Shown: one piece after another, positions 3,158 through 44,659 of the stretch | Layout of the letters: every line of letters starts with the position of its first letter | How positions within the stretch are numbered: position 1 is the first letter of the stretch | From: a virus | Reading direction: 5' to 3' (one strand) | IMG/VR virus record: IMGVR_UViG_3300047496_000021 | Location: 1 to 50,246 of that record | DNA: 50,246 nt | Program-made: the position numbers and the translations under genes | The notes under the pieces: generated by a model | What the model was told of the DNA's origin: nothing | Database searches by the model: none | Seen by the model: the letters and a program-made list of their open reading frames with translations, nothing else

Positions 3158-3604
3158 TCAGGCGCTCGGGCTAATGGCGCACTGTCCGAAGGCGACGCCC
3201 CACGACCGGGGCTGCAACACCTTCTGAGCCGTGGGAACTGGGCTCGCCTTCATGAGATAGCCTTGCGTCAAGGTATAGATTGTGGACGTGGCCGGAAGCG
3301 AGATGGTGAGCGAGCACGGCAAGACTTGCGGGCCCTCACGTTCGGTGTTCGCCCACGTCTCAAAGATCGGCACGGAAAGGCTCGACGCCAGAAACTTGAA
3401 ATCAATCTCGACCGGCACAAACACGAAGCCCGCTGTCAGCACGCCGTCCGCGCCGAATTGCAGTTCCTTGTTCGTGATGTCGGGCACATCAAACATCTGA
3501 TCGGGCGCGAAACCCTGAAGCTGTTGCGGCGAATCATACAGCGTCGGCACGGTCAGCATGACCACCGCATTGGCGCTTGTGACTGTGCGATAGGTGACGG
3601 CCAT
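3158..3604 (-). CDS. Tail tube protein (DUF3277-like, as recalled)
   Basis: 148 aa directly downstream of the sheath gene and upstream of the chaperone; 1-nt overlap TAATG. Confidence 0.65.
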   Translation of the reverse strand: MAVTYRTVTSANAVVMLTVPTLYDSPQQLQGFAPDQMFDVPDITNKELQFGADGVLTAGFVFVPVEIDFKFLASSLSVPIFETWANTEREGPQVLPCSLTISLPATSTIYTLTQGYLMKASPVPTAQKVLQPRSWGVAFGQCAISPSA

Positions 3605-5532
3605 TAGATGATCTCCAGCGACGCAAGCGTGATCTGTTGGATCGACTGGCCGTCAGTGTATAAAAAGATCATCGTCGGTGGCCCTCGCTGCCCCCTCACC
3701 GTCGCGCCGGGATCGCCAATGAAGAGATACCAGCCATTGACCTGCACTGCCGCCGGCGCCCCCTGAACGCCCGTGAGCGCCACCACTTCCGCCGCTTCCG
3801 TCGCTGATAGCTTCACACCCGTGCGAATGGCGCCAAAGTTGATGGCTTGCTGAATGGCGGGCGACAAGGCTTGTGCCAGCATCCCATAGCCCTGCGCGTT
3901 GTAAGGCACGGACTTTACGGAAACGAGGAACGACAGAAGCGTGATTTGGAAGAGGTTGTTCATCCAAATCTGATTGTAATAGGAGTCCGCCCATGCGAAC
4001 GGGCCGGTGCAGAAACCTTGGGCGAAGAAATTCTCTGTCGTCGCGCCGCTGGACGAGCTGACATAGCAGCTATAGCCGTTGGCCGTGATATTCGAATACG
4101 ACTGACCGCCCGTCACGCCGGGCACGAGGCCGCTCTGCGTCGTATAGGCTAAATCCGTGCGGCCACCCTGTGCGGTGAAATTGAGGCTTGCCGCATAACC
4201 GCATACCGCCGCCGCGATGCTTTCGTCCGATGGCTCCCAAAGCGGGATGCAGCCTGAGATATTCGCCTGGATGATCGCGTATCCCGCGCTCTGTGTCGCC
4301 GGAACCGTCGTGGTGACAGTTACGTCGGTGTCCCACATCACATAGGCGAAGCGGTTCGGATAGGTGTTGAGCCACTGGGCAAAAAGGATTTTGTCGCCCG
4401 TCACCGGATTAAACGCCGTCATATACGACGCCCAGTTCGTGGTGATGGCGTAAATCCCGTTCATGGCCGTTGTTGGCGTCATCTGCGCCGCGCCTTGGCT
4501 CAAGGTCGCGCTTGTCGCCGCCGTCAGGCCAAGACCCGTCGTCAGGCTGTTGGTGGTCGGATAGGCGACGCTGGACGAAGCCGACAGGAATGTTGAAGCG
4601 ATGACAAAGCCGCCGGACACGCTGTCATAAGCCACGGTCCATGCCGAATTGACGAGCGTGCCAGAGGTCACCGTTTGAGACCCGCTGACGACGTAGGTTC
4701 CCGCCGCGCCGGCGCCGGTGATCAAGCCCGTGACAACCGTATTAGCCGCCGTCGTCGAGCCCGTAATGGTCGAGCCGACCGCCAGAACGCCCGTGGGCGT
4801 GCCCGTGACTGTGAGGATACCCGAGGCCGCCGCCGCCGCTCCGGTGATGCCGCTGGCGACCGTCTGGCTTACGGAGACCACGTAAGTCCCGGAAGAGCCC
4901 GCCGTGCCCGTCAGTTGCGAGACAATGGTTGTATTGGCCGCGACGCCGCCGCCGCTCAAGACCTGCCCTGGGAACAACGCGCCCGCGCTGACAGTCGCCG
5001 TTAGGGTCGTGCCAGCAATCGCGCCCGCGCTGAGCGTGGCCGTGCCGGGGGCGATTGAACCGGTGAAAGACCCATCCGCGCCGGCAAGGGCCGTGGCGAT
5101 GAGCGTGGCCGCATTGCTGAACGAGGTCGCCGCGGCAAGGTTGATGGCGCTCGACGTCACCGTCACACCGTCGATGGTGATAGTGATTGTGCCAGATAGG
5201 GCCTGAAGCTGGGCGATGGTCAGGGACGAGACGTTCCCGCCCCTGATATAAGCCGCCACCGCGCCCGCGCCCGTATATTGGTAGAACAGAATCGCGCCGG
5301 GTTTCGCGAGGGAATTGTCCGGGCCCTGAAAGTAGGTCTGCGCGATTGAGGCTTCCGTCGAGCCTGCGCCGAAATAGGCCGCGACCGCCGCATAGGACGA
5401 AAAGCTCGGAACCGTGCCGATGGGAACGCGCGTATTGCGGGTCAGCACGACGGCGATGAGGTCAACAGCGGTCCCACCCGCGCCCAAGACGCCAGGGATG
5501 ACATTGACGAATAGAGAGGCGGGAACGCTCAT
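3604..5532 (-). CDS. Tail sheath protein (DUF3383-like, as recalled) with two inserted ~40-aa surface modules
   Basis: 642 aa. The N terminus MSVPASLFVNVIPGVLGAGG...AILFYQY matches the sheath family remembered as DUF3383. Position is upstream of the tube gene. Confidence 0.7.
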   Translation of the reverse strand: MSVPASLFVNVIPGVLGAGGTAVDLIAVVLTRNTRVPIGTVPSFSSYAAVAAYFGAGSTEASIAQTYFQGPDNSLAKPGAILFYQYTGAGAVAAYIRGGNVSSLTIAQLQALSGTITITIDGVTVTSSAINLAAATSFSNAATLIATALAGADGSFTGSIAPGTATLSAGAIAGTTLTATVSAGALFPGQVLSGGGVAANTTIVSQLTGTAGSSGTYVVSVSQTVASGITGAAAAASGILTVTGTPTGVLAVGSTITGSTTAANTVVTGLITGAGAAGTYVVSGSQTVTSGTLVNSAWTVAYDSVSGGFVIASTFLSASSSVAYPTTNSLTTGLGLTAATSATLSQGAAQMTPTTAMNGIYAITTNWASYMTAFNPVTGDKILFAQWLNTYPNRFAYVMWDTDVTVTTTVPATQSAGYAIIQANISGCIPLWEPSDESIAAAVCGYAASLNFTAQGGRTDLAYTTQSGLVPGVTGGQSYSNITANGYSCYVSSSSGATTENFFAQGFCTGPFAWADSYYNQIWMNNLFQITLLSFLVSVKSVPYNAQGYGMLAQALSPAIQQAINFGAIRTGVKLSATEAAEVVALTGVQGAPAAVQVNGWYLFIGDPGATVRGQRGPPTMIFLYTDGQSIQQITLASLEII

Positions 5533-8308: not shown

Positions 8309-9427
8309 TTAAACCCCCAGCATGAAGACGCTAGCCCATGGCTGGCGATTCACCGCGCCCCATCCGCCCTGACTCATCTTCTGCTCAAACGCGCTCATCT
8401 TGCGGATGATCGGGTGCGAGCGGAGCCTTTCGGTGAAGGCGCAATAGCCGTAATCTTGGCCACCGGCCTTGGTCGCGATGAGCTGCGTCAGGTTGCCGCC
8501 GAGATTGTTCAGCGACGTGCCGTATTGGACCGCCGTCTCGATGCGCAGGTTCGGAAACTCCTTCTTGATGATCTCAAAGACCGTTGTGGAGTTGTAGGGC
8601 GCATTGACCTGGGCCAGCGCGACCTCGCTCTGCGGGGCCATCGCCCACACCAGCTCGGATTGGCGATCAATGGCGATCTGGCCATCGCCTTGGGCGACCA
8701 GTTGCAGAAATTGGCTGAGGAAATCGTTATAGATTTCGTTCGCCGTCGCCGTGATCACGCCATTGGTGATCCACGGGCCATGCGCCTGGGCATTGTAAGC
8801 CTTCGGGCCGGGCTGAATGGGCGACAGAAGGTTCGGGTCATTGATAATTCCGTAGTTCTGAAGGCCGGCGACGCCAAAAAAATACATGTTGTTCTGAAAC
8901 TGATCGAGCGCCGTAATCGCGCCGCCGCGCTTTTCCGCCACCCAATCCAGTTGCGCTAGGGCCATCATGGCCAGCTCGCGCTCGCCGTATTGGATGATGG
9001 TCTGATAAAAGTAGGACTGGCGATAAGGCCATTGGACGTTGGCGCCGGACGAGCCGCTGTCGGAATAGTCGCCATAGGACGAGGTGTCGCCGGTGCGCTC
9101 AATGGTCGGGAACGCCGCCGTAAGCATCGTCCAGTCGCCCTTTTTCTTCTCGCCGATAATTTTGGCGGCCTGAAGCGGGGCGAACAGAATTTGCAGGTGA
9201 TCGGGGTCGAAGAAATTCGTCAGCGACCATGGAATGCCGCTGTCCGGCGTCGTGGTCAGCGTGGGCTGCGCGTCCATCGCCAGTTGCGAATTGCGGCGAT
9301 AGGCGGTCGGCAGGAAGCTGCGCACTTCCGGCAGGACAATCCCGTAATCGCGCTCATAGGCAGGCGCTACCTGAGCCCACTTGGCGACAAGCTCTTGGGG
9401 CGATGCAGTCTTGAAATCAAAGGCCAT
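8309..9427 (-). CDS. Major capsid protein
   Basis: 372 aa following the cement and scaffold genes, the same gene order as Bordetella phage BPP-1-type capsid modules (recalled). No diagnostic motif checked. Confidence 0.75.
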   Translation of the reverse strand: MAFDFKTASPQELVAKWAQVAPAYERDYGIVLPEVRSFLPTAYRRNSQLAMDAQPTLTTTPDSGIPWSLTNFFDPDHLQILFAPLQAAKIIGEKKKGDWTMLTAAFPTIERTGDTSSYGDYSDSGSSGANVQWPYRQSYFYQTIIQYGERELAMMALAQLDWVAEKRGGAITALDQFQNNMYFFGVAGLQNYGIINDPNLLSPIQPGPKAYNAQAHGPWITNGVITATANEIYNDFLSQFLQLVAQGDGQIAIDRQSELVWAMAPQSEVALAQVNAPYNSTTVFEIIKKEFPNLRIETAVQYGTSLNNLGGNLTQLIATKAGGQDYGYCAFTERLRSHPIIRKMSAFEQKMSQGGWGAVNRQPWASVFMLGV

Positions 9428-9430
9428 GAT

Positions 9431-10354
9431 TTACCCCAGCGCGTGATCGGAAATGCGGACCAGTTCGCCGACCGCGCGGCCCACGTCCATGCAAACCCAC
9501 TTGGTCTCAACATACCCCGTGGCGTTGACGGTGGCGGACGCGGCGGTCTGCGACGTGGCGACGTTGTAGGTGCCATTGCCACCCGTCCCGGTGCCCAGCG
9601 AGATGATGGCTGGCGTCCCGGTGACATTGGCGCCCGACACCACATCGCCCACCGCAAGCGCGCCGCTGGCGACAGCCGTGACGGTCAGGACGCCATAGGA
9701 TTGCGTGATCGTGGTCGAAGCCAAGGTCTGCGGGATATTGACGGTATAGACGCCAATGCCGCCAGCCGTGCCGCTCGTCTGGCCCGTGATGACAGTGCCC
9801 GCTTGCAGCCCGGTTGCCGACAGCGCGCCGCCGACCACAAGGCCGGGCGTTCCCGCCGCCGTGACTGTCAGAACATAGCCGCTGATCGCGCCCGTGACTG
9901 ACACCGAAGGGCCGGCAGCGATAGATCCCGTGACCACGCCACCCGCCGGGGGATTGCCGGTGGCGGCGAAAGCCACAAGGCCGGTCGCATAGTTGGCATA
10001 GGCCTTCATGCCCACGGTCGTGATGAGCGAGCCGTTGTTCACGACCCAGAAATCACCGCCCGAATAGCCAAAACACTGAATGCCGCTGAGCACCTGCATA
10101 GTGGCGGCGGACAGGAACTGCGTGATGAGGCCCTGCTGATTGCGGCCCATAAAGCCACTGACAGGCCCTGAACCGTTGCTGTTCAGAATCTTGTTCGTCG
10201 GATCGGCCCAGCAGAAACGCCCAACATAAAGGTTCGTGCCCGCGACCATGGCGCCCGGTCCCGCGATGAGCGAAAAGCGCGGATTGGCGGAACAGAAGTC
10301 ACCGGCGACCGCCGGGGCCATGAAAGTCTGAACTTGTTGCGGAAAATCGGCCAT
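9431..10354 (-). CDS. Capsid cement/decoration protein with two inserted ~40-aa surface modules
   Basis: 307 aa directly upstream of the major capsid gene. The N terminus MADFPQQVQTFMAPAVAGDF recalls the cement protein family. The central region carries GTAGGIGVYTVNIPQTLAS and GTGGNGTYNVATSQTAAS. Confidence 0.6.
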   Translation of the reverse strand: MADFPQQVQTFMAPAVAGDFCSANPRFSLIAGPGAMVAGTNLYVGRFCWADPTNKILNSNGSGPVSGFMGRNQQGLITQFLSAATMQVLSGIQCFGYSGGDFWVVNNGSLITTVGMKAYANYATGLVAFAATGNPPAGGVVTGSIAAGPSVSVTGAISGYVLTVTAAGTPGLVVGGALSATGLQAGTVITGQTSGTAGGIGVYTVNIPQTLASTTITQSYGVLTVTAVASGALAVGDVVSGANVTGTPAIISLGTGTGGNGTYNVATSQTAASATVNATGYVETKWVCMDVGRAVGELVRISDHALG

Positions 10355-10368
10355 GAGGGTGGGGTCCT

Positions 10369-11724
10369 TTAGGCTTGGCCGATGCGCGCGGCATCAGGGA
10401 AAAGCTCATTGGCGGCCATCGCGGCGTCATGAGCGAATTTCGGCGTCTGCGTGCGGCGGCCATCGGGCTTCGGCTGCAAAGCGAGGATCGCGCTATAGGC
10501 GCTCGGGTGAACGCCCTCGACATTCACGCCCAGCGTTTCCAGCGCGAACTTGCGCACGGCGTCGGCGCTGTCCATGGCGACCACGATATCGCCCACGAAC
10601 GGGCGGACCTCGCGCTCGGCGTCGCGGATGGCGTTGACGCGGGCGATGGCGGTTGTCGTCGCGGCCTTGACCGCCGTTTCAATCGCCGCGTCCATGGCCT
10701 TTTTGTCCATGGCCCCTTCCTTCTTTTCACCGCCGGGCTCGGAATCGCGACCCCGCTTGGCGTCGCGAGCGGGGCGATCCTTGGCCCAAGCCGCGTCCCA
10801 CGCCTTGCGGTCCTTGGCGCCCATCTTCATGTAGCCGGCGGCGTCCTCGGCGTCTTCGCGTTCCTCGCGCTCGTCGTCGGGCTCTTCGTCGTCGGCGTCC
10901 ATGTCATCTTCGTCTTCGGCCCCGTCGTTTTCGTCGTCCAGGCTGTCGAGAAGCTTGTGGATGTCTTCCATGTCCGCGTCGGCGGCGAGGCGCGGCTTGA
11001 TGGCGGCGAGAATGGCGGGTTTCTTGGCGCGGTAATTGGCGCGGTTCACGTCGCCCAAGATGCTGTCGAACGCGAGGCGCTGACCGCTGGCGAGCTTCGG
11101 CGTCACATAGGCCGCGAGCGCGCCGCGAACCAGAAGAGCCTTGCGAGACGTGAGAGCCATGGGGCGTCTATCCAATGCTTGATCACCGACCACCACGTCC
11201 GCCCCAGCCCGGCCCGCCGAAACCAAAGCAACGTGATTGGCCACGATGTCTCGCATAACGCCGTCGAAGCGCAAGCCCTGGTATTCGCCGGGCGTCATGT
11301 CGGCGACGTAGCGGTAGGAACAGCTCAACTGCTCCTGTTCCTCGCTCTCAATTCCGGCGATGGCCTCGGCGTCCCAGACGGCCAGCGAGTTGATGAGGTA
11401 GGGATCTTCAAACCGCGCGTTTTCGCCGGTCGTGCCGACCACGTCGTCTTTTTTCGGATCGTCGGCGGACACGGCGATATGGCGGCGCAGAAGTTGGATT
11501 TTGTTGAAGGTCGGCGCGGCTTTTTTCAATTCATCGGGATGGCGAAGAAGCTGATAAATCTTCTGCGGATCAAGGCCGAGCTTTTCCCAGTCGGGGATTT
11601 CCTCGCCCTTGTAGGGATTAACCGTCGCCTTCGAGATATTGCTCGACGCGATATGCAGCCGCCCATCCACGTCCTTCGTGCGGTTTTCGGGCTTTTTGTC
11701 GAAGGCGAAGGTCTCGATCTTCAT
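10369..11724 (-). CDS. Prohead protease/scaffolding protein (DUF2213-like, as recalled)
   Basis: 451 aa with a conserved N-terminal half, then an acidic tract DDENDGAEDEDDMDADDEEPDDEREEREDAED and a helical C terminus. Confidence 0.7.
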   Translation of the reverse strand: MKIETFAFDKKPENRTKDVDGRLHIASSNISKATVNPYKGEEIPDWEKLGLDPQKIYQLLRHPDELKKAAPTFNKIQLLRRHIAVSADDPKKDDVVGTTGENARFEDPYLINSLAVWDAEAIAGIESEEQEQLSCSYRYVADMTPGEYQGLRFDGVMRDIVANHVALVSAGRAGADVVVGDQALDRRPMALTSRKALLVRGALAAYVTPKLASGQRLAFDSILGDVNRANYRAKKPAILAAIKPRLAADADMEDIHKLLDSLDDENDGAEDEDDMDADDEEPDDEREEREDAEDAAGYMKMGAKDRKAWDAAWAKDRPARDAKRGRDSEPGGEKKEGAMDKKAMDAAIETAVKAATTTAIARVNAIRDAEREVRPFVGDIVVAMDSADAVRKFALETLGVNVEGVHPSAYSAILALQPKPDGRRTQTPKFAHDAAMAANELFPDAARIGQA

Positions 11725-11739
11725 GGCCGCAAATTACGG

Positions 11740-11943
11740 TCAGGCGCGCTGTTGTGCAAACGTGATGACGATCACGCCCAGCCGCACGGCTTCCTCGACG
11801 TAAATCCGGGCATGTTTCGCGCAGGCCCGTTCCATCGCCGGGCGGTTAAAATACTCGATATCGCGCTCACCCGGCCGCAAAGGCGACGGGCCTAAAAACT
11901 GCATTTTCGGAACGCCTTGGCCCCCGCCCTTATGTCCGCTCAT
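11740..11943 (-). CDS. Hypothetical small protein
   Basis: 67-aa ORF, ATGA-coupled to the MuF-like gene stop. Confidence 0.45.
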   Translation of the reverse strand: MSGHKGGGQGVPKMQFLGPSPLRPGERDIEYFNRPAMERACAKHARIYVEEAVRLGVIVITFAQQRA

Positions 11944-12803
11944 GCTGCTATCGGCTCAACCATTTCTGACATGGTGGGGATGATTGGGATCGCCACACAG
12001 CGGCAATTTATGAGCGTGCCCGGCCAACACCTCACTTTTGCGTCAGGATCAAACCAGCCCTCCGCGATGTCATAAATCACGCCGTCACGCCCCGCCTTGA
12101 CGTGGCTTGGCCTAGGCGTCTTGCCCCCCGCGCTATGCAGCCAACGGGCTTGCTTGAACCCCACCTCAAGCTGCCGGGCCCGGTTGATCACGGCGGTCGC
12201 CTTGTTGGTCTGGTCGCGGGCGATGTTGACGGCGCGCCGCCGCGTCACACCGTCATGAGCTTCAATCTCGCGGGTGAGCGTGTGCAGGTCGATACCCGTC
12301 TGCACCGAACGCATGACTGAACCCTCAATCTGAGTGAAATACTGTTCCGGTATCGACTTGATCAGCGATACATTCTCTGCGGTGACCGATTGAAGGATAT
12401 CGTTTATCTGTCGGTTGAGCTTGAAATCTATCGCGATACCGGCCCGTTTGAGCGCGTTCGTCAGCGTGGCGTCCACGCGATCTTTTTGCTGCGTGGCGAA
12501 ATAGGCAGCCATCTCGGGCGCCAAACGCTTGAAGCCGTCCGTCCAGCGCCGTCGAAGCTGGGCGATGATCGCTTGCAACGCCTTCGCTGGGCTGGCGTCC
12601 ATCGCGATTTCGGGTTCGTTGGCGAGGTAGGCGCGGCGGATGATGTGCTCGACGTCGCCGCTCATCTGGGAAATCAGGCGCTCAAGCGTGCGGCGGTAGG
12701 CGATTTCCTGACCGAGGTTCGGGCGGATAGCGGGGAGGGTAGCGGCCCTAATCGTTGCCGTCATCATCGTCCGCATCGGCGACTTTCGGCGCGGCGCCCG
12801 CAT
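11940..12803 (-). CDS. Head morphogenesis protein, Mu F / SPP1 gp7 family
   Basis: C-terminal WLHSAGGKTPRPSHVKAGRDGVIYDI...WPGTLINCRCV motif. The true start may be an internal ATG at 12776, 12767 or 12764. Confidence 0.85.
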   Translation of the reverse strand: MRAPRRKSPMRTMMTATIRAATLPAIRPNLGQEIAYRRTLERLISQMSGDVEHIIRRAYLANEPEIAMDASPAKALQAIIAQLRRRWTDGFKRLAPEMAAYFATQQKDRVDATLTNALKRAGIAIDFKLNRQINDILQSVTAENVSLIKSIPEQYFTQIEGSVMRSVQTGIDLHTLTREIEAHDGVTRRRAVNIARDQTNKATAVINRARQLEVGFKQARWLHSAGGKTPRPSHVKAGRDGVIYDIAEGWFDPDAKVRCWPGTLINCRCVAIPIIPTMSEMVEPIAA

Positions 12804-15405
12804 AGGTCACGCCCTCGGCGAATTCCCTCAACGCCTTTTGCTGACGCTCATTGGAGGCCCAGCCATCGGCCTCGGCGTCCTGTGCGATCTTTTCCATTCC
12901 CAGTCCCCAGGCATCGAACAGCATCGGATTGATGTAGGCAGAGAGCGCCATGGCGCGCGTATTGCCGAGCTGTGACGATACCACATCGCCCACATGGTTG
13001 ACAGCCTTGCGCCTGGCCTTCTCGTCGGCCGGCGGCTCCATCGAGGCGATGGTTTCAGCGGCGAGGGCATTGGCTTTCAGCGTTCTCAGATCCTTCGACT
13101 TGTAGTCTCCCCCGCACACTTTCTTGATGAAATAACGCGCCTTTGTTTCGTCCGTGTTGAACAGTCTCTCTCCGTCATTTGCGTTCAACCGTTTCGACAC
13201 AAGATCAGCCAAGTTTTTATCTTTGACCTTGTTTTCGATATGCACGCCCTCCTTGCCGATGAACGAATAATGGACCGTATCGCCATCGACTTGGACATGG
13301 GATTTGCGCAGGTTCGTCGCCCCATGCGCCTTTTTCTCGGCGCCGTTGTCGTTCTCGCTGCCTGGCCTCATACCCGTCAACAGCATGAGACGAACGGCAG
13401 CGGCAGTTTCATCGCCTTCGGACACGGCTGATTTGGTCGAGTCGTTCAGCAATGGCGCTTTCTTTTCGAAAGCAATTACGCGTTCGAACTTCTCGGCTTT
13501 CTTGCTATTGGCAAAAGCTTCGGTGTATCTGTATTGAACGCGCCCTTTGCTGTCTATGCCGAGAACTTGCAACGGAGCGTGTTCGTCATGCGATATCCGC
13601 ACGTCGCGCCACGCCGGTGGAATGGCGAGCGCCTTGATCCTTGCCGAGCTGATACCGGGCGCCGTCCAGGTGTTTCCCTCGCGCTTGGCTTCGACGCCTC
13701 CTGCCGTCTTGCCCTTGCTCACGGACAGGCTAGAACCTGCCGACTTGGCGAACTCACCCGCGTTCTCGGGCTGGCCGCGCGGATGGCCCGCCTCGTTCCA
13801 TTCCTTGTCGAGCGCCATATCCCCACCGACGCCGCTCCGTTCTTCGGTGCGCGTCTCGCCGATGCCCTTCGCTGGACTTCCGCCGATGTCAGGCTTCACC
13901 GCCTCGCCCGTCTCAGGGTCCACCGCCGGCGGATCGGGCGGCGGTGTGTCGCCGAGGTCAAGGCTCGCATAGGCGCTGTCAGGATCGCGCGCCACGGCCT
14001 CGCGTACCTCTTCGGGGCTAACGACGCCATCGCCGAGATAGACCGCGTGCGTGTCCGCCTTGGCCTTCTGGACAGTGGCTTGAGCTGCGTCGTCCATTTC
14101 CCAGAGCGAGACATATTCGAAATCAATCTCGGGGTCGATATCGCCGAACTCGTCAAGCTGGATGATATTGATCGCCCGGCGAAGATGATCGGTATAGAAT
14201 TGCTCCTGTTGCGCTCTGATCCAGGCGTAAAAAGTCCTGATCTCGCCATCGCTTGAGGCGTTAAGCCCTGACGGCGTAATGCCGAGCAACACGACAAGCG
14301 GAATACCCCACACGCTGGCCATGTGTTCTTGGGCCTGCGCTTGAAGCTTATCGAGCGACCCCAGAGGCGCGCTCGCAATGGCGAAATCTTCTTTTTCCTT
14401 GTCGATCACGAACGCGCCGCGATTGTCGCGGAACCTGTTAAACGCAAGCACACGGTTCAGGATTGTCTGCATGGCGCCGGCCAGCGTCAGATTGCCCATG
14501 TCCGTCTTGAACACCGGAACGCTGAACGCATGGGTGATGTCGCTGACGCTCTGGCGCGTGCGGAGCCAGTTGTTCACATAGGGAATGCCGAGCTGACTGA
14601 GCGACAGGCCGCCGAAGTTGTAGGCCGGTTTGAGCAGGTCCGGCACTGGGCGCGAAATGAACGTCATCAGGCGCGTGTAGTGAATTTCCTTGCCCATCAC
14701 GAACCACGTCGAGGGGCGGTAGTAGGCGGGATTGAGCGGGTCGCTGGCGTTGTATTGGTTCGGGCTCGTCCAGATCGGCTCGATGGCGCGAAAGCCCCTG
14801 AGCGAGCCTTTCTTGATCGTGCGCTTATCGACGACGAGAGGCAGTGTCAACGTCGCCGGATCGTCGGTCGCGCCCGTGTCAACGTAGAGGTGCGCGAGGC
14901 CGAAAAACCCGTCCAACGTCGTAACCTCGCGAAACACGGCCTGCAAGCGGTGACGCTGCATGGCGTCTTCGAGTTTGCGCAGACGCTTTGACTTATCCTT
15001 GCCGTCCGTGCCTGTGGATTTCAGCTTGATCCACTTGCGGGTCATTTCCTTGGCGATGATTTCGGACGCGCGGCGGTATTCGGGGCGCTGTGTCAGCTCG
15101 GACAGGAACGCATAGCCTGGAAAGCCCAGTCCGTTGGCCCAGTTGCCGAGGCCCGACAGTGACGCTGGTCCCGCGCCTCCCCACGCAAACGCATCATCCA
15201 TCGCCAGCGCGGGCGCGTCGTCGGGGCACACCCCCTTCGCCGGCTGATAGGGCCTCATCATCGTCATGGGATCGACGGCCGGCATTTCGATGATGGGCGT
15301 CAGGGATTTCGACTCGCGACCCAGCGCATCCGCCAACGAGCGCCACGCGCGCGACTGCTTGTCTTCGTTCGTCTCGCTAAACGATGGGCGCGCCTTGCGG
15401 GTCAT
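12748..15405 (-). CDS. Portal protein fused to a C-terminal type IB topoisomerase-like domain
   Basis: 885 aa. The N-terminal ~500 aa are portal-like (FLSELTQRPEYRRASEIIAKEMTRKW) and ATGA-coupled to terL. Residues ~585-840 carry IPPAW, GIDSKGRVQYRY, MRPG, FIGKEG, KDLRT, LGNT and SAYINP. Confidence 0.85.
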   Translation of the reverse strand: MTRKARPSFSETNEDKQSRAWRSLADALGRESKSLTPIIEMPAVDPMTMMRPYQPAKGVCPDDAPALAMDDAFAWGGAGPASLSGLGNWANGLGFPGYAFLSELTQRPEYRRASEIIAKEMTRKWIKLKSTGTDGKDKSKRLRKLEDAMQRHRLQAVFREVTTLDGFFGLAHLYVDTGATDDPATLTLPLVVDKRTIKKGSLRGFRAIEPIWTSPNQYNASDPLNPAYYRPSTWFVMGKEIHYTRLMTFISRPVPDLLKPAYNFGGLSLSQLGIPYVNNWLRTRQSVSDITHAFSVPVFKTDMGNLTLAGAMQTILNRVLAFNRFRDNRGAFVIDKEKEDFAIASAPLGSLDKLQAQAQEHMASVWGIPLVVLLGITPSGLNASSDGEIRTFYAWIRAQQEQFYTDHLRRAINIIQLDEFGDIDPEIDFEYVSLWEMDDAAQATVQKAKADTHAVYLGDGVVSPEEVREAVARDPDSAYASLDLGDTPPPDPPAVDPETGEAVKPDIGGSPAKGIGETRTEERSGVGGDMALDKEWNEAGHPRGQPENAGEFAKSAGSSLSVSKGKTAGGVEAKREGNTWTAPGISSARIKALAIPPAWRDVRISHDEHAPLQVLGIDSKGRVQYRYTEAFANSKKAEKFERVIAFEKKAPLLNDSTKSAVSEGDETAAAVRLMLLTGMRPGSENDNGAEKKAHGATNLRKSHVQVDGDTVHYSFIGKEGVHIENKVKDKNLADLVSKRLNANDGERLFNTDETKARYFIKKVCGGDYKSKDLRTLKANALAAETIASMEPPADEKARRKAVNHVGDVVSSQLGNTRAMALSAYINPMLFDAWGLGMEKIAQDAEADGWASNERQQKALREFAEGVTYAGAAPKVADADDDDGND

Positions 15406-16706
15406 ATCAGTTCAAGCGCGCTTTCATCGAAGACTATCGGTCCTTTGCTTTGAATATAGCCATCTAAACTATACCTAACCGCATCTATGCCATGATTGTA
15501 TTTATCAACCAAGATCGGCAAAACTAGCGGCTGTCCATTCTCGTCTAGTTGCTTCGGGTCGGTTTTCCAAGAGTATAGTCGAAACTCCTGAATAATATTC
15601 TTGCAGCGCGGGTGCACCGTAATGGTTTTGAACCCCTTCATGTAGGCGATACCATCTTCGACGCTGCCTGGCCACTTCTCGGCGGCGCTGATGTTGAAGC
15701 CCTTGCGCTTGAGGTAGCTGATGATGGCCGGTTGCGCCGCGTCACCCTTGATCGGCCATTTTCGCGAGTCCGGCACTTGGTCAAAGATCGCTTGCGGGAT
15801 GTCGTCAATCTCGACGTGCCAGCCAAACGCCTCATGCGTGATGAACAGGTTATCGGCCAGCACGTAGGACCGGATGAGCGTCGTCGGGTCATTCGCAAAG
15901 CCCCAGTCTGCGCCGTAGAAGGGCCGCATGTCGGGCGGCTCGACGAAATCCTCCACCTTGACCCGATCACGGAACACCATGGCGTCGGTGAGCCGGCGAC
16001 ACTTGCCTTCCCAGATCCAATCATAGGCGGCTTGGTCGATGCTTGAGCCAGCATCCGCCGACCGTTGCGCCGCGCTACGCAGGCGCTCCAGCACCGGCGG
16101 AAACCATGGATTATCGCGCCAGTTGATCTCCTGAACGATGGCCTCGGGCGGGGCTTTGAGGTTGAACAGTTGATGGGTGGCAGCGCCCTCAAGGTCCGGG
16201 TTGTAGGTGATCGCAAACTCCGAGCCTTCCACGCGCAATGTCGGGTCAAGCACCTGCCACTCATAGGCGGGCACGCTTTCCGCCTCTTCAACCCAGCAAT
16301 ACTTCACCCCTTTGAGAGATTTGATCCCGTTGATGTCTCGCTGAATGCCCTTGAAGATAAAATCTGATTTGGTGGCCCGATGAATGATCGTGCTTTTGAG
16401 GATATCGAACTCTTGCAACAGCCCTAAATCTTCAATCGCCTCCGCAATTGTTCTGTGAACCGAATCGTTAATGCTGTTCTGATACATGCGAGCGCACAAA
16501 AAGCGGGCCGTCTCAGACCTCGCCAACATCACGTATATTCGCGCCACGCCCTCCGATTTGCCGCCTCCTCGACCGCCGAACAACACCCGATATCTGACCA
16601 CATGGCCCGTGTCGGTATATTGGCGCCAGCTTCCGTCGTGATTGTAAAACGCTTCCGCGACTTTTCCGACAACCGGAGCCTCAATCGTGGCCAGTTCAGT
16701 CGCCAC
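15402..16706 (-). CDS. terL: Terminase large subunit
   Basis: 434 aa. Walker A is FGGRGGGKS. It has the C-terminal nuclease-region acidic motifs and lies upstream of the portal. Confidence 0.9.
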   Translation of the reverse strand: MATELATIEAPVVGKVAEAFYNHDGSWRQYTDTGHVVRYRVLFGGRGGGKSEGVARIYVMLARSETARFLCARMYQNSINDSVHRTIAEAIEDLGLLQEFDILKSTIIHRATKSDFIFKGIQRDINGIKSLKGVKYCWVEEAESVPAYEWQVLDPTLRVEGSEFAITYNPDLEGAATHQLFNLKAPPEAIVQEINWRDNPWFPPVLERLRSAAQRSADAGSSIDQAAYDWIWEGKCRRLTDAMVFRDRVKVEDFVEPPDMRPFYGADWGFANDPTTLIRSYVLADNLFITHEAFGWHVEIDDIPQAIFDQVPDSRKWPIKGDAAQPAIISYLKRKGFNISAAEKWPGSVEDGIAYMKGFKTITVHPRCKNIIQEFRLYSWKTDPKQLDENGQPLVLPILVDKYNHGIDAVRYSLDGYIQSKGPIVFDESALELI

Positions 16707-24009: not shown

Positions 24010-24360
24010 TTATCCTGCCAGCGGCTCCGAGCCACGACCCCCGGCGCGTACACGGCGTCGGGGGTTTTTCGTTTCCCACGCCGCTTTCTCGCGTTCGGCA
24101 CTCTCGCCAGCCTCAACCTCCGCGACCAGATCCCCCAAATCATCCGCCAGCTCGCGCACGTAATCCGCCGCAAACTCTAGCCCACCGCCGGCAATGAGCG
24201 CCCGCACATGGGCCTGAATTAGCGCGAAATGCCCCTCACGTCGTGGTCGCCAATCGCTGAACGCCTCCACGACCTGGCGCGCGAGAATGTCGGCAGTCAG
24301 TGCGTCGGCGGCGTCAAGGCTGGCGTCGGCGCGGGTCCAGAGATCGTCCCACGGCGTCAT
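24010..24360 (-). CDS. Hypothetical protein
   Basis: 116 aa, ATGA-coupled to the gcrA stop; its 3' end overlaps the plus-strand terminator hairpin. Confidence 0.5.
   Translation of the reverse strand: MTPWDDLWTRADASLDAADALTADILARQVVEAFSDWRPRREGHFALIQAHVRALIAGGGLEFAADYVRELADDLGDLVAEVEAGESAEREKAAWETKNPRRRVRAGGRGSEPLAG
24037..24069 (+). terminator. Rho-independent terminator ending the first rightward block
   Basis: A 9-bp stem cccccggcg / cgtcggggg (one G-U pair), a 9-nt loop, then ttttt at 24065-24069. Confidence 0.7.
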
Positions 24361-24953
24361 GCGTAACGACGGGCCAGTTTCTCCAGATCGCGGGCTTTTC
24401 GCGGGGCTTCCGGCTTATAGGCTATCGCCGCATGGGCCACACAGTAGCTCGCGCCCTCACCTTTGACCGGCGCGCAACACGACAGCATGTCCTCACCCTC
24501 GCCAATCGGCCATGCGCATTCGCCGTAACCGCGCGTGAGGAAATGCCGGGGTTCTACAGGCCCGTCAGCCGCAACGCTCAGCTGCGGCGGCGTTGGCGCA
24601 CGTCTTGGCCCGGCCACGCGCCACGGCGTCACGGTCGCTTGCGTGGACCTCGCAACGTCGATCTCGCGCGGGCGTGAGGGTTTCACAACCACCGGCTTCG
24701 CAGATTTCATAGCATCAATCTCAACCGGACGGCGCTTGGGCTGCACACGCGGCTGACGCTGCACCTTATCCGGGTCAGTCGGCACGACACGGTGCGACAT
24801 GCCCAGCCGGTGAATCTTGCCGATCACGCCATTACGCGTGCAACCGCCTATCGCCCGCGCGATTTGGCTGCACGATAGGCCCTCGATCCATAATCGCTTC
24901 AGCTCGTCGACGCGCTCGTCAGTCCAGCCGGTCGGTGTGTCTGTGATGTTCAT
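24357..24953 (-). CDS. gcrA: GcrA-family cell-cycle regulator homologue
   Basis: Start trimmed to the ATG at 24953. N terminus WTDERVDELKRLWIEGLSCSQIARAIGGCTRNGVIGKIHRLG. C terminus CAWPIGEGEDMLSCCAPVKGEGASYCVAHAAIAYKP. Confidence 0.9.
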   Translation of the reverse strand: MNITDTPTGWTDERVDELKRLWIEGLSCSQIARAIGGCTRNGVIGKIHRLGMSHRVVPTDPDKVQRQPRVQPKRRPVEIDAMKSAKPVVVKPSRPREIDVARSTQATVTPWRVAGPRRAPTPPQLSVAADGPVEPRHFLTRGYGECAWPIGEGEDMLSCCAPVKGEGASYCVAHAAIAYKPEAPRKARDLEKLARRYA

Positions 24954-24972
24954 GGCGCCCCTCCTTGGCGGT

Positions 24973-26004
24973 TTATGCGGTGAGCAAAAGCTCCCTTTGC
25001 GACGTCTCAGCGCCAATCTGCGCGATGTTTTTCACCGCCTGCGCGTAATATGACGGCTTAAGCTCAATGCCGATTCCGCGCCGGCCCATTTCCACGGCGG
25101 CAAACACTTCGGACCCAATGCCCAAAAACGGCGTCAAAACCGTCTCACCCTTGATGCTCCAAAGATCAATGCAGCGTTCAATGACGTCCAGTTGGAGCGG
25201 GGAAATGTGAACCTCATCTTTGGCGTCGCGACCGCCGCGATATTGGAGCGTGCGCGTCTGGCGAATATCGCTCCACACGGGCGAGGCGTAGCGTTGCCAT
25301 ACCATGATTGAGAGCCATGTTTCATAGGGCCAATGATCCAACTTATCGCCGCCGTTAGCGATAACTTCGGCGTCACGGCGCTTGCAATCGGCTTCGTAGC
25401 CATCGCGGCTCACATCAAGACTTTCGTCACCAACCCATTGTGTAAGACCGCCGCTGATCGCCGTATCGTTATCGCCGGGCTTGCGGAAGGTAACGACGTA
25501 GTCAGCGAGCCCCTGCCCGCTCATGGCCGAATCCTTGACTAACTGTTTGTGCAGTAAGCGAAGCGATTTCGTGCGCTGCTGGGCGACAACCGGGTCTTTC
25601 CAGATGCAGACTTCGCTATGAAAATGCCACCCGCAATCCTGCCAAAGCTGAATGATCTCCCCGCGAAAATCCCTCATGCCGACATAGCCGTCACGCCCCT
25701 TATTGCGGGGTAATTGCATGACGTGAACACTGGCCAAGCGCCCCGGCTTGGTCACGCGAAGCATTTCCTGAATGAGAAACGCATAGTGCGAGTTGAAATC
25801 GTCGCCCTCGCTGTTGCTCATGTCGCGGTCATAGGCGGAAAATTTATAAAGCCCGCTGAACGGAGGCGAGTGAATGCTGAAATGAATAGTGTCGCTTCCA
25901 ATCCCGCGAATGACTTCGCAGCTATCACCTTGATAAATTGCATAATCGTCCGTGATCAATTGATCGACCACCTTGACGTCATCCGACACCTTCACGCGGC
26001 CCAT
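24973..26004 (-). CDS. DNA methyltransferase, beta-class N4/N6 family
   Basis: Motif IV is HSPPF near the N terminus and motif I is TPFLGIGSE near the C terminus. Confidence 0.85.
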   Translation of the reverse strand: MGRVKVSDDVKVVDQLITDDYAIYQGDSCEVIRGIGSDTIHFSIHSPPFSGLYKFSAYDRDMSNSEGDDFNSHYAFLIQEMLRVTKPGRLASVHVMQLPRNKGRDGYVGMRDFRGEIIQLWQDCGWHFHSEVCIWKDPVVAQQRTKSLRLLHKQLVKDSAMSGQGLADYVVTFRKPGDNDTAISGGLTQWVGDESLDVSRDGYEADCKRRDAEVIANGGDKLDHWPYETWLSIMVWQRYASPVWSDIRQTRTLQYRGGRDAKDEVHISPLQLDVIERCIDLWSIKGETVLTPFLGIGSEVFAAVEMGRRGIGIELKPSYYAQAVKNIAQIGAETSQRELLLTA

Positions 26005-38617: not shown

Positions 38618-39343
38618 CTATTGAAGGGATTGAAGCCCCTTCGTCGGCGGCGGCATAACCCACGGCGTCGCCTTGATTGCGGCGGGCACGCTCGGAAACG
38701 GATCGCCGCCCATCTCTACCATCGCGGCCTCAATCGTCTCCTGAGCGCACACCGGCATGGGCGTCTGAGTGTTGGTGCAGGACCAAGCTTCCGCCGTCTG
38801 CTTGGTCACGTCGAACACGGCCTTGCAGGTCTTGATTGGAACCGCGACCTTGCCGCCGAGCCTTTGCCCAGTCCAGCCGCCACACGGCCCAGTAACGATA
38901 TAAAGCGTGTCACCGACGCCAGCGAGGTTGCGAAGGGCTTGCTCTAGGCCAGCCCACGCAAGTCTGTTGAGGTTCGGTGTTTGGGGAGCCGCGTTGCACA
39001 AAATGAACGTCGCGGGCTTATCCGCCGACGCCGCGCTCTCGCTCATGTGGCCGATGTCAAAGCCGCTATGAGCATACACGGACGGGCTGATTTGCTCATC
39101 GGCGGGAAGGCCGGGACACGCTTTAAACACACCATTGCGAGCGGTTTTCTTAGCCGCTGCGATGGATTCGGGCGTCTCGACTTGCGCGCTCCAAAGCGGA
39201 TCGCCTTGGGCCACGGAATACCCGACCGCGTAGCCGTCCTCGCAAAGCTGCACGTCAACCGCGATGGATGGCGGCTGGCCGCCCGCGAAGAACTGCGGGC
39301 AGGCGGTCGCGACGGTGGCGGAAGCGAGGAGAGCGAGGATCAA
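38618..39343 (-). CDS. DNA/RNA non-specific endonuclease (Endonuclease_NS/NucA-like) with an N-terminal export signal
   Basis: TTG start in a TTGA overlap. N terminus MILALLASATVATAC. Active-site-like HSGFDIGHMSES (compare the DRGH motif). Many Cys residues. Confidence 0.7.
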   Translation of the reverse strand: MILALLASATVATACPQFFAGGQPPSIAVDVQLCEDGYAVGYSVAQGDPLWSAQVETPESIAAAKKTARNGVFKACPGLPADEQISPSVYAHSGFDIGHMSESAASADKPATFILCNAAPQTPNLNRLAWAGLEQALRNLAGVGDTLYIVTGPCGGWTGQRLGGKVAVPIKTCKAVFDVTKQTAEAWSCTNTQTPMPVCAQETIEAAMVEMGGDPFPSVPAAIKATPWVMPPPTKGLQSLQ

Positions 39344-40189: not shown

Positions 40190-40311
40190 TCTTCGCCCTC
40201 ACCTTCTGGGTTTCGCGCCATCACGAAGATCGTCGTTAAGACGCCAAGTATAACACCGATCACAATTCCGCCAAATATGGCGAACGCGATAACGTGGCCC
40301 TCTACGCACAT
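40186..40311 (-). CDS. Small single-TM protein (41 aa; holin/antiholin candidate)
   Basis: MCVEGHVIAFAIFGGIVIGVILGVLTTIFVMARNPEGEGEE; overlaps the endolysin 3' end by 10 nt. Confidence 0.4.
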   Translation of the reverse strand: MCVEGHVIAFAIFGGIVIGVILGVLTTIFVMARNPEGEGEE

Positions 40312-40766
40312 TGCTCGTCCGGCATGACGCCGCTCGCCATGATGTTCGCTTCGAGTTGCGCGCGGTTCGGCGTCTGATCGGCCCATTGGCTATTGATCAT
40401 GCCGTGCGCCGCCGCCGCGTAGTTTCCGGCCTTCATGGCTTGGAGCGTGTTGGTAAATCCGAGAAGCCCCGCGAGGCCGAGTTGGTATCCCATGCTGAGC
40501 AGAACCACTTGACGGCCTTGTGTCATTTCCCGCCACCACGGAAACGCACGATCAAACCTCTCGGCTAGGATTTCAACCGTCGCCTCAAGCCACGCCGTCG
40601 CCTCCTCTTCCGTGCAGGTCATGCCCAGCTTCACGCCCGCATCGGCCCGGCCATAGCCAATCGTCCACGGCGGTCCTTTGCTGATAGGATCTGGGTATGC
40701 CTCAAGGCGTAGGCCCTCTTGCGCCTTGATGAAGTCGCACGCGGGCGCCAGAACCGCGTCCGTCAT
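40302..40766 (-). CDS. Endolysin, GH24 (T4-type) lysozyme
   Basis: FIKAQEGLRLEAYPDPISKGPPWTIGYG catalytic region. Confidence 0.9.
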   Translation of the reverse strand: MTDAVLAPACDFIKAQEGLRLEAYPDPISKGPPWTIGYGRADAGVKLGMTCTEEEATAWLEATVEILAERFDRAFPWWREMTQGRQVVLLSMGYQLGLAGLLGFTNTLQAMKAGNYAAAAHGMINSQWADQTPNRAQLEANIMASGVMPDEQCA

Positions 40767-44400: not shown

Positions 44401-44659
44401 AGATCGCCGATACGTTGCTGTTCGTGGTGCTGAGACCCGTGGACAGAGACGACACGACAGGCGAATTGGACGCGCTGAGGTTAGTCTGAGCAAACGCGCT
44501 CGTCAGATTGACCGTGCAAGCCTTATAACTACCGCCCTGTATGCAAGGCTGGATTTCCGTTCCCGTAAGCGTTGAAGGCGCGGGGTAGTTTTGCCCCGCC
44601 GCCAATGTAGGGATTAGCGCAAGAGCGCTAGACGCAAGGAGGGCCTGAAAGCGGGTCAT
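41456..44659 (-). CDS. Tail fibre/tailspike with a Ser/Thr-repeat shaft and a pectate-lyase-like (beta-helix depolymerase) domain
   Basis: 1067 aa. SLSTGLSSTNSNVGSLSTSAS-type repeats span aa ~245-478, followed by NVLTLGADNTGATSSTAAFNLAIAALGANGGRIIVPAGTYNL. Confidence 0.8.
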   Translation of the reverse strand: MTRFQALLASSALALIPTLAAGQNYPAPSTLTGTEIQPCIQGGSYKACTVNLTSAFAQTNLSASNSPVVSSLSTGLSTTNSNVSAILSTGVTGTLSTSHGGTGLTAFSRSGNTTTFGTISGALTAGYCVQFDSSGNLVSAGGVCTTGGGGGTVTSGTANDLAYYATTGTAVTGLATVNNGVLVTTGAGVPSISTSLPNGLAFGTPASVTLTNATGLPISTGVSGLGTSVASALSGIPTGTGPLVLSTALSSTNASITTLSTSASTGLSIAYSNETSLSTGLSSTNSSVGSLSTSAQSGAASLSTGLSSTNSNVGSLSTSASLGLSTGVSAAASLSTSLGTTNANVSYVSTSASTGIAGLSTSIGAVSISVASLSTSTSTGISTVGSGVVSLSTGLSTTSGGVTSLSTALSTTNASAVTLSTSASTGLSTHTSQIASISTGLSATTSTVTSLSTSASTGISTNISGVTSLSTGISTSNYSAPNVLTLGADNTGATSSTAAFNLAIAALGANGGRIIVPAGTYNLATAINQSSKSIYWDISPAATFTGSGGQTAAVVSAGALSTSVSTGLYTATVTSGTLQAGTVVSGGGSTAVIIAGQNSGTAGGTGQYTYAGTLQNVASGVTTAVNPFPLMNTNYAEQAWGPWLVLQGTQAAAASASGGANNLFSAEVIQPASATNSLVAGYFGAISSATSSSATIWDINAICFEPYGFRGTCNGAEFDLYNGSAVAAGSIAVLVEGTGGYTTADQGPFGILMSRGPDGSNWNYGMDILHAVNAVALSPTNAGIIIGPYSGGPMPSVSNVTNVDITLKGLANGGVGLYEQAPAASPTGYAQYLTNYGNSAGLAALDWLGDWTAVNYIATSTAIGFDTGSPTAGLTNVGFVGKMYSNGGDVFLAQRSTDTSPTGYFFRGINAANSANLFFVDIAGNEQVASLTTGGALTVAGTVSGAGFTSLLSNYFPLAPGSIQSVTSNFNNIMVHWTNTGSVGAAFEFTGNGSTTPNKYFFFLNGNFYIANSANSADPFTLTDAGAETITGAMTATGYIAGSSTGLSCSGTPSASFASVGGIVTHC
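43225..43927 (-). repeat. Coding repeat region (about 22-residue Ser/Thr-rich units) of the fibre shaft
   Basis: Repeated LSTS/LSTG strings in the translation. Confidence 0.7.

Follow-up and report, generated by a model that had tools for sequence, protein, structure and literature searches.

A portal and a topoisomerase in one reading frame

The window analysed here is a stretch of viral DNA of 50,246 nucleotides (nt; IMG/VR record IMGVR_UViG_3300047496_000021, at its full length), and the element under study is a gene at the start of its head module, adjoining the large terminase gene (terL), whose product joins a phage portal protein to a type IB DNA topoisomerase (TopIB) domain via a flexible linker. 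This architecture had been read from the letters alone in a first-pass annotation, and the structural observation (portal, linker and complete TopIB) proved correct in every detail at the levels of sequence, profile and fold. The gene is a single uninterrupted open reading frame (ORF) of 885 amino acids (aa) which, as had been stated, is coupled to terL by an ATGA overlap of the terL stop and the portal start (Table 1). A Logan contig from an independent assembly encodes an identical 885-aa protein, for which records also exist in NCBI, JGI and ENA.

The N-terminal part, taken for an ordinary portal in the first-pass annotation, is indeed one by profile and fold. It matches Phage_portal_3 (PF06381; residues 104-453, E 5e-81; all Pfam domain calls lie above the curated cut-offs, i.e., gathering scores) and phrog_146 (E 1.5e-110). 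The TIGR01555 score of 106 bits lies under the equivalog cut-off of 196, and the portal is classed as a family member rather than as that exact equivalog. In the full-length AlphaFold2 model, the portal (residues 95-475) is confident (predicted local distance difference test score, pLDDT, mostly > 90), the linker is disordered, the TopIB (570-835) is confident and the acidic tail is disordered. Foldseek aligns the portal half with the portals of phages E217 (8fvh_O; E 1.6e-19, template modelling (TM) score 0.73) and Pa193 (9b41_A).

The sequence and the predicted structure support the C-terminal domain as a complete, catalytically intact TopIB of the bacterial type, apparently an active enzyme. 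Top1B_N_bact (PF21338) covers residues 587-618 (E 1.7e-11; 44.1 bits against a cut-off of 27) and Topoisom_I (PF01028) residues 633-819 (E 1.3e-15; 57.8 bits against 23.7), while residues 576-885 match the TopIB of Deinococcus radiodurans (2f4q; phmmer E 7e-31, ~30% identity), such that R680, K718, R774, N815 and Y824 stand opposite R137, K174, R239, N280 and Y289 of that enzyme. The motif strings quoted in the first-pass annotation are each present and map to these five residues. The variola TopIB is also matched (E 2e-6), including the GxDSKGRxQY motif. An AlphaFold2 model of residues 552-885 (pLDDT 86.9; predicted TM score, pTM, 0.81) adopts the two-domain clamp fold, i.e., an N-terminal beta domain and a tyrosine-recombinase-like catalytic domain. 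The TopIB fold claimed at the outset was recovered from this model by Foldseek, with matches to bacterial TopIB (3m4a, E 1.4e-15; 2f4q, E ~1e-15), the variola enzyme (2h7f, TM 0.61) and human Topo I, tyrosine recombinases appearing at E > 1e-3 only. Furthermore, the R-K-R-N-Y pentad is invariant in 55/55 portal-TopIB fusions (see below) despite a median TopIB identity to the query of 35%, which argues for selection on catalysis.

The DNA encoding the TopIB had been described as visibly more AT-rich than that of the portal. A difference exists but is weak (GC content 0.549 and third-codon-position GC, GC3, 0.675 for the TopIB; 0.613 and 0.776 for the portal). Among genome windows of equal size, the TopIB segment ranks at the 6.7th percentile, and low GC was on this ground rejected as a strong sign of recent acquisition.

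Table 1. Parts of the portal-TopIB gene and neighbouring head genes, with positions in the window
Feature	Position	Strand	Evidence and remarks
Large terminase	15402..16706	-	Terminase_3 and Terminase_3C (Pfam); immediately upstream of the portal-TopIB gene
Whole portal-TopIB gene (885 aa, 96.8 kDa)	12748..15405	-	Single ORF; PF06381 + PF21338 + PF01028
N-terminal low-confidence region (aa 1-94)	15124..15405	-	pLDDT mostly < 60; start codon overlaps terL stop (ATGA)
Portal domain of E217/Pa193 type (aa 95-475), crown helices at its end	13981..15123	-	Phage_portal_3; phrog_146; AlphaFold2; Foldseek
Disordered Pro/Gly/charged linker (aa 476-569, ~95 residues)	13699..13980	-	pLDDT < 50 at 505-536 and 549-567; no Pfam match
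Cargo tag W536-F552, WNEAGHPRGQPENAGEF	13750..13800	-	Instance of [FW]xExxHPRx(3-9)GxF
TopIB N-terminal beta-sheet domain (aa 570-628)	13522..13698	-	Top1B_N_bact, E 1.7e-11; beta strands with pLDDT > 90
TopIB catalytic domain (aa 629-835)	12901..13521	-	Topoisom_I, E 1.3e-15; 2f4q, E 7e-31; Foldseek
Codon of the predicted nucleophile Tyr824	12934..12936	-	Aligned to Tyr289 of D. radiodurans TopIB
C-terminal tail (aa 836-885) and stop; one helix, acidic disordered end	12748..12900	-	pLDDT < 50 at 864-885; 56-nt overlap with MuF start
MuF / SPP1 gp7-like minor head protein	11940..12803	-	Phage_Mu_F, E 1.8e-12; phrog_324; no cargo on this copy
DUF2213 / Pa193_gp24-like protein	10369..11724	-	DUF2213, E 2.5e-47; phrog_2229 'head maturation protease', E 1e-127
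Minor head protein	9431..10354	-	phrog_2122
Major head protein	8309..9427	-	phrog_264, E 1.5e-60

The linker tag, recurrence of the fusion and shuffling of the topoisomerase

The Pro/Gly/charged linker contains EWNEAGHPRGQPENAGEF at residues 535-552 (nt 13750-13803), in which the first-pass annotation had noticed an HPR...G.F string and linked it to cargo linkers on MuF and portal fusions. This link turned out to be real and general. The motif, hereafter the tag, can be written as [FW]-x-E-x-x-H-P-R-x(3 or 6, rarely up to 9)-G-x-F followed by a Gly run; among 72 instances, the aromatic residue is present in all and the Glu in 69. Sixty of 72 portals whose tail measures 120 aa or more contain it, against one of 48 lacking such a tail, and the copy in the linker is its sole instance in the six-frame translation of the window. 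Upstream of the TopIB it is found in 54 of the 55 fusions (46 strict and eight degenerate, with HDR, HKR, VNR or EPR for HPR, or W for F), usually 30-60 residues before the domain. Free TopIBs of head modules (P0122, P0123, P0129 and that of locus L003) carry it at the N-terminus. Only 4/120 proteins of a TopIB-only search have the tag, none being among those named cellular TopIB. An in-frame ATG at M530 (13816-13818) lies five codons upstream of the tag in the window, with GGTGGGG 2 nt upstream of it, and internal initiation there might yield a free tagged TopIB; this start was considered and set aside, the Met not being conserved in other fusions.

A search with the tag profile against 1.84 billion representative proteins yielded 3,305 matches at E <= 1e-3 and 346 at E <= 1e-10. 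At the top of the ranking stand giant multi-module proteins in which as many as 18 stretches match, and successive copies lie a median of 261 aa apart, i.e., about one per domain. Among the top 147 tag-matching proteins, 21 have a Phage_portal_3-type portal and 17 a TopIB; Pfam analysis of 50 tag proteins identified ART-PolyVal, ADPrib_exo_Tox, NUDIX, InPase, PBECR3, Zeta toxin, GNAT and 2H domains, as well as DUF2213 in three of them. These tag-bearing multi-module proteins correspond to the polyvalent proteins that Iyer et al. described in 2017 (PMC5512222). In two of them, P0246 (7,334 aa) and P0295 (5,313 aa), the tag is matched in 16-18 stretches; were the tag a site of cleavage, each would be a polyprotein giving rise to over a dozen separate effectors. 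At smaller scale, the Mu-like head module of locus L008 (2332-13930) encodes six consecutive tagged proteins, the tag lying between Portal_Mu and a Zeta toxin, between Acb1 and a TopIB, and at the N-terminus of four free proteins (three without known identity and one PHROG-labelled head maturation protease). Two radical SAM genes are also located inside this module. The tag is retained on fused cargo, is present once per module in polyproteins and stands on or next to head proteases, which fits polyprotein-style processing by a head protease; thus, it is probably a processing and/or capsid-targeting signal. It is mentioned neither in the polyvalent-protein paper (PMC5512222) nor in the paper on MuF toxins (PMC5576092), and a 32-aa tag peptide found no match among deposited phages by tblastn, the query being too short for that database.

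Recurrence of the fusion was assessed in the 120 best homologues of the whole protein, a ranking that is biased to TopIB-bearing proteins and gives no prevalence estimates. A survey of related portals for the same fusion had been envisaged in the first-pass annotation, and 55 of these top 120 are such fusions (38-56% overall identity). Sister portals carry a Zeta toxin/AAA_33, ADP-ribosyltransferase (ART), RelA/SpoT, InPase or other module in the same position, and plain portals of ~500 aa make up ~40% of the set. Three of the portal-TopIB homologues (P0008, P0047 and P0058) also contain Hint/PT-HINT domains, and their portal region is ~250 aa longer, which suggests inteins or autoproteolytic Hint modules inside portal-cargo proteins. 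In IMG/VR, a scan with two peptide patterns only (its counts being a lower bound) identified at least 232 viral stretches encoding the same type of TopIB. In the 80 best loci, from which context was taken, the TopIB is fused to a Phage_portal_3-type portal in 15 and to MuF in three, is free in 35 and has a long unidentified N-terminal extension in 27. Pfam analysis of 16 of these 27 ORFs revealed six Phage_portal_3, three Phage_portal (PF04860) and one Portal_Mu domain, three polyvalent combinations (ART-TopIB, GNAT-TopIB-Acb1 and TopIB-NUDIX-DNA methylase) and no match in three. By these domain calls, the TopIB is joined to the C-termini of three different portal families (Phage_portal_3, Phage_portal and Portal_Mu), and its partners in one polypeptide comprise ART, NUDIX, Acb1, GNAT, 2H, InPase or DNA methylase.

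Deposited phages present a different picture. The fusion is absent from 50,697 deposited phage genomes, of which 540 records match the portal family, all without TopIB; current model phages therefore cannot reveal this class. When the locus was compared with them by megablast, nothing matched, and the TopIB domain recovered by tblastn no more than one distant, free-standing gene, that of Bacteroides phage BS162P1.

The TopIB behaves as a cassette of head modules. The closest non-fused domains are free proteins of ~320 aa, P0121 (59% identical; it also has the C-terminal tail, with 99% query coverage) and P0122 (56%), whose genes are flanked by those for portal and MuF in E217-like head modules. 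Six of six free TopIBs from the phage-side clade are located between portal/MuF and capsid genes. At L003, the free TopIB gene most likely begins from a GTG overlapping the portal stop (GTGA), an arrangement that would equal the fused form interrupted by a stop codon. P0137 is a MuF-TopIB fusion beside a Mu-type portal, P0125 an Acb1-TopIB fusion in a Mu-like head module, and P0134 and P0139 are flanked by portal-MuF fusions and HK97-type capsid genes and have 2H phosphoesterases as neighbours.

Similarities of the two halves are incongruent. The portal domain of the window shares 70% identity with the plain portals P0005 and P0007 but only 47-52% with the portals of those fusions in which TopIB identity reaches 52-68%. 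The TopIBs nearest to that of the window (56-68%) belong to, or have as neighbours, far more distant portals, those adjoining P0121 and P0122 being only 22-24% identical to the window portal. Thus, module shuffling, and with it the horizontal acquisition put forward in the first-pass annotation, is better supported by this incongruence than by GC content, the ground originally given. A rough midpoint-rooted neighbour-joining tree of 175 TopIB domains, without support values and to be read as a lead only, groups 97 untagged stand-alone TopIBs in one clade without portal fusions, which holds every protein named cellular TopIB (Mycolicibacterium, Streptomyces, Nocardia, Saccharothrix), while the 55 portal fusions and 23 other phage-side sequences fall outside it.

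Genome and head module

An exact 127-nt direct repeat lies at both contig ends (1-127 and 50120-50246), and tail genes (sheath, tape measure, Baseplate_J and E217_gp41-type hub) wrap around these ends; thus, the contig is a circularly closed, complete phage genome with a unique length of ~50.1 kb. A full myovirus tail is encoded. The head module runs on the minus strand in the order terL, portal-TopIB, MuF, DUF2213 protein, minor head protein and major head protein, and the head-tail gene set is that of E217/Pa193 (Pa193_gp24, E217_gp27, gp31, gp32 and gp41). No other ORF scanned in the genome matches any portal family, and no integrase or other lysogeny gene was found among the larger ORFs. 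A YqaJ-type exonuclease is also encoded.

The DUF2213 protein is a candidate head maturation protease-scaffold and may be the recogniser of the tag. Its homologue in Pa193, gp24, was described as a putative scaffold, possibly cleaved, in the cryo-EM study of that phage (PMC11456595). No solved homologue was found among PDB sequences, and an NCBIfam search was uninformative. A single family, phrog_30637 (1,119 positions), matches the C-terminal part of the portal and the DUF2213 protein alike, and some phages therefore seem to encode the two in one polypeptide.

Apart from the head module, several features of the genome deserve mention. A GcrA-like cell-cycle regulator (PF07750, E 3e-32) adjoins an N6/N4 DNA methyltransferase (24357-26004, minus strand), a pair typical of alphaproteobacterial cell-cycle control, which hints at an alphaproteobacterial host and at manipulation of its cell cycle. 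A scan of isolate genomes with portal-region patterns returned one locus, from a metagenome-assembled genome. The family phrog_21413 matches both the minor head/decoration protein (9431-10354, minus strand; Gly/Ala/Thr-rich C-terminal half) and an N-terminal insertion of the tail sheath (3604-5532, minus strand), and a common surface-exposed domain may decorate head and tail. A protein of 1,067 aa without PHROG or Pfam match (41456-44659, minus strand), encoded between the end of the tail/baseplate block and the lysozyme gene, is a probable tail fibre or receptor-binding protein of a novel kind. A DNA/RNA non-specific endonuclease (PF01223, E 6e-26; 38618-39343, minus strand), encoded close to the lysis genes (lysozyme 40302-40766), may serve degradation of host nucleic acids.

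Proposed role and relation to known systems

The reading preferred here, to which a probability of roughly 0.6 is given, is that the portal C-terminus loads the TopIB into the head and that the enzyme is processed at the tag, ejected with the DNA and active early in infection. Portals are dodecamers with the C-terminal crown toward the capsid interior. The C-terminus would serve as a loading arm, and up to 12 TopIB copies would be built into each procapsid because portals assemble as dodecamers; by our own estimate, their volume would be ~1% of that of a 50-kb genome. The tag would most likely be recognised by the putative head maturation protease-scaffold (DUF2213), encoded two genes downstream, and cleavage would release a TopIB of ~35-37 kDa inside the head (37.4 kDa for a cut after the conserved Glu). 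The freed enzyme would exit with the DNA at infection and relax positive as well as negative supercoils, without ATP and before any phage gene expression. Its substrate would be the incoming genome, which is topologically constrained because it remains anchored in the particle, and possibly also host DNA, and the outcome would be an aid to early transcription and genome establishment or blunted host defences. The fusion partners Acb1, 2H, NUDIX, ART and DNA methylase suggest an early takeover or anti-defence role. Pre-packaged phage proteins that are injected are well known, such as Alt and the internal proteins of T4 and the virion RNA polymerase of N4. Furthermore, portal- and MuF-fused effectors have been predicted to be packaged and injected (PMC5512222), a polyvalent protein of 2,811 aa (phi24B gp47) was detected in phi24B virions, and proteins encoded between portal and scaffold are present in Pa193 virions (PMC11456595).

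A number of points weigh against this proposal. Encapsidation, cleavage, ejection and relaxation activity are all steps that we infer, and an attached domain cannot leave the head, so that ejection requires a cleavage which is itself predicted. The 'protease' label of the DUF2213 protein comes from PHROG family names only, while the Pa193 study calls the homologue a scaffold. One of the 55 fusions has no recognisable tag. Many free TopIBs of IMG/VR are without a strict tag, and simple markers found no head-module neighbours for most of them, which may reflect low marker sensitivity. The poxviral/bacterial TopIB target YCCTT occurs in the genome about as often as expected (159 observed against 145 ± 12.5), and the window gives no hint of a targeted host process.

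Alternatively, the TopIB could stay on all 12 portal subunits as a covalently tethered swivel, working on the phage's own DNA within the capsid or at its mouth and relieving the twist that arises in motor-driven packaging or in ejection. The portal C-terminus points into the capsid beside the DNA axis (an established architecture, with the fold match to E217/Pa193), the length of the linker suffices for contact with the DNA, the active site shows conservation and the fusion arose on three portal families, all of which would suit such a device. Nevertheless, the nearest portals (70% identical) and all 540 portal-matching records of deposited phages do without a TopIB, and the conserved tag between modules points to processing rather than to a permanent tether. 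The evidence favours ejection with the DNA over a packaging swivel, since members of this TopIB clade are also found as free proteins, on MuF and within polyvalent effectors with ART, NUDIX and Acb1, modules unrelated to packaging, and swap position with toxins and anti-defence enzymes; the swivel is thus judged unlikely. A further departure from the preferred reading concerns the purpose of delivery, with the TopIB, carried by phage or phage-like particles, acting as a toxin that collapses the chromosomal supercoiling of the target cell, for host shut-off or bacterial competition. In its favour are the similar build of toxin fusions on MuF and portals (PMC5576092, PMC5512222), the presence of Zeta toxin, ART or RelA/SpoT on sister proteins, and the existence of MuF-TopIB fusions. 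Against this stand the lack of a candidate immunity gene (the MuF gene directly overlaps the portal 3' end by 56 nt, and none is found in L003 either), a dose of at most ~12 molecules per cell, and the nature of the element, a complete phage genome with a full myovirus tail rather than a dedicated toxin-delivery particle. Moderate TopIB expression is, moreover, tolerated in Escherichia coli, and a toxin role appears improbable.

The enzyme might instead act on the genome end, either capping it covalently (as T4 gp2 protects ends) or circularising a terminally redundant genome by strand transfer. Suicide cleavage near DNA ends and strand transfer are established for vaccinia TopIB, the terminase is of the Terminase_3 type, a family which we take to be associated with headful (pac) packaging, and the enzyme would be located where the last-packaged DNA end lies. 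This chemically possible role nonetheless finds no specific support: the YqaJ-type exonuclease of the phage suggests that recombination takes another route, the pattern of YCCTT sites is unremarkable and the co-fusion with Acb1, NUDIX and ART would go unexplained, making it a distinctly improbable explanation. Finally, a frameshift or missed stop could have merged neighbouring portal and TopIB genes, as some relatives have the two genes separate and adjacent (in L003 only a GTGA overlap apart). Such an artefact can be practically dismissed in view of 55 independent fusions at 38-56% identity, the occurrence of fusions on three portal families, the identical ORF in independent assemblies and the in-frame conservation of linker and tag.

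With respect to known systems, the carrier principle preferred above is already known from polyvalent, portal and MuF effectors (PMC5512222, PMC5576092). Like the polyvalent, portal- and MuF-effectors (PMC5512222), the window gene places a virion-incorporation domain before a swappable enzymatic module in the late/head gene cluster; a portal and a TopIB are combined in the head module, the TopIB is shared and shuffled among polyvalent proteins, and the partner modules are the same (ART-PolyVal, NUDIX, InPase, PBECR, 2H and Zeta toxin). However, TopIB is not among the effector domains of that paper, in which 'topoisomerase' appears only in a reference title. The MuF polymorphic toxins (PMC5576092) likewise have a head protein with a variable C-terminal enzymatic domain, but here the carrier is the portal, the MuF protein (11940-12803) is separate and without cargo, no immunity gene is adjacent, no small ORF lies between portal-TopIB and MuF, and TopIB is not listed as a toxin domain. 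The E217 gp19 and Pa193 gp19 portals share the portal fold (TM 0.73), while their solved chains of ~435 residues match the portal half only. Among open-access papers and preprints, none was found that connects TopIB with a portal, MuF or polyvalent protein, nor any that describes the tag.

The T4 internal proteins and Alt offer a parallel to the tag, being free, later injected head-internal cargo with a short N-terminal signal. The T4 capsid-targeting sequence serves as targeting signal and cleavage site at once and is removed by the prohead protease; the [FW]-x-E upstream of HPR resembles, as we take it, the hydrophobic-x-Glu rule of the T4 gp21 protease. The T4 signal differs in its sequence motif, and the tag is in addition found between the domains of fusions and polyproteins. 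Should the tag act in targeting or processing, it would provide a general rule for spotting capsid cargo in metagenomic phages and a possible handle for loading chosen proteins into phage heads.

Phage-encoded enzymes of TopIB fold are represented by the free-standing topoisomerase I, of tyrosine-recombinase fold, of jumbo phages (PaBG, Motura, phiRSL1 and Lu11; PMC7824862), of which PaBG and Motura were also matched by the TopIB domain in BFVD, and by top1E of BS162P1. These are only 18-29% identical to the window domain and either larger (540-560 aa) or located among early-type genes, and those of the jumbo phages are discussed in a replication/topology context rather than as virion cargo (PMC7824862); none is fused to a portal. 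The TopIB of D. radiodurans (2f4q/3m4a) shares the two-domain clamp and the R-K-R-N-Y active site, while cellular bacterial TopIBs are free-standing proteins of ~330-350 aa without the tag. Forterre and Gadelle (2009) proposed that bacterial TopIB derives from an undiscovered viral TopoIB lineage (PMC2647321), and the TopIBs of head modules are a candidate for that lineage. On a wider and more tentative view, tailed phages would possess a widespread cargo system in which the tag marks capsid-interior proteins and the protease-scaffold reads it, with injected, active TopIB among the commonest cargoes as an early takeover or anti-defence enzyme, and with head-module TopIBs as both the 'missing' viral TopoIB group and the counterpart of poxvirus TopIB.

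Delivery of a TopIB with the genome would add DNA topology to the manipulations that phages perform by pre-made injected enzymes. The TopIB of poxviruses (variola/vaccinia, 2h7f) agrees with the window domain in fold, in a GxDxKGRxQYxY-type motif and in four of five catalytic residues, although the similarity is distant (E 2e-6), His stands in place of Asn, the enzyme is not fused to a structural protein and the virus is a eukaryotic one of another capsid lineage. Poxvirus TopIB is packaged in the virion core and promotes early transcription. It may thus be regarded as the closest functional analogy, and the portal-borne TopIB would form a bacterial-virus parallel to this virion topoisomerase.

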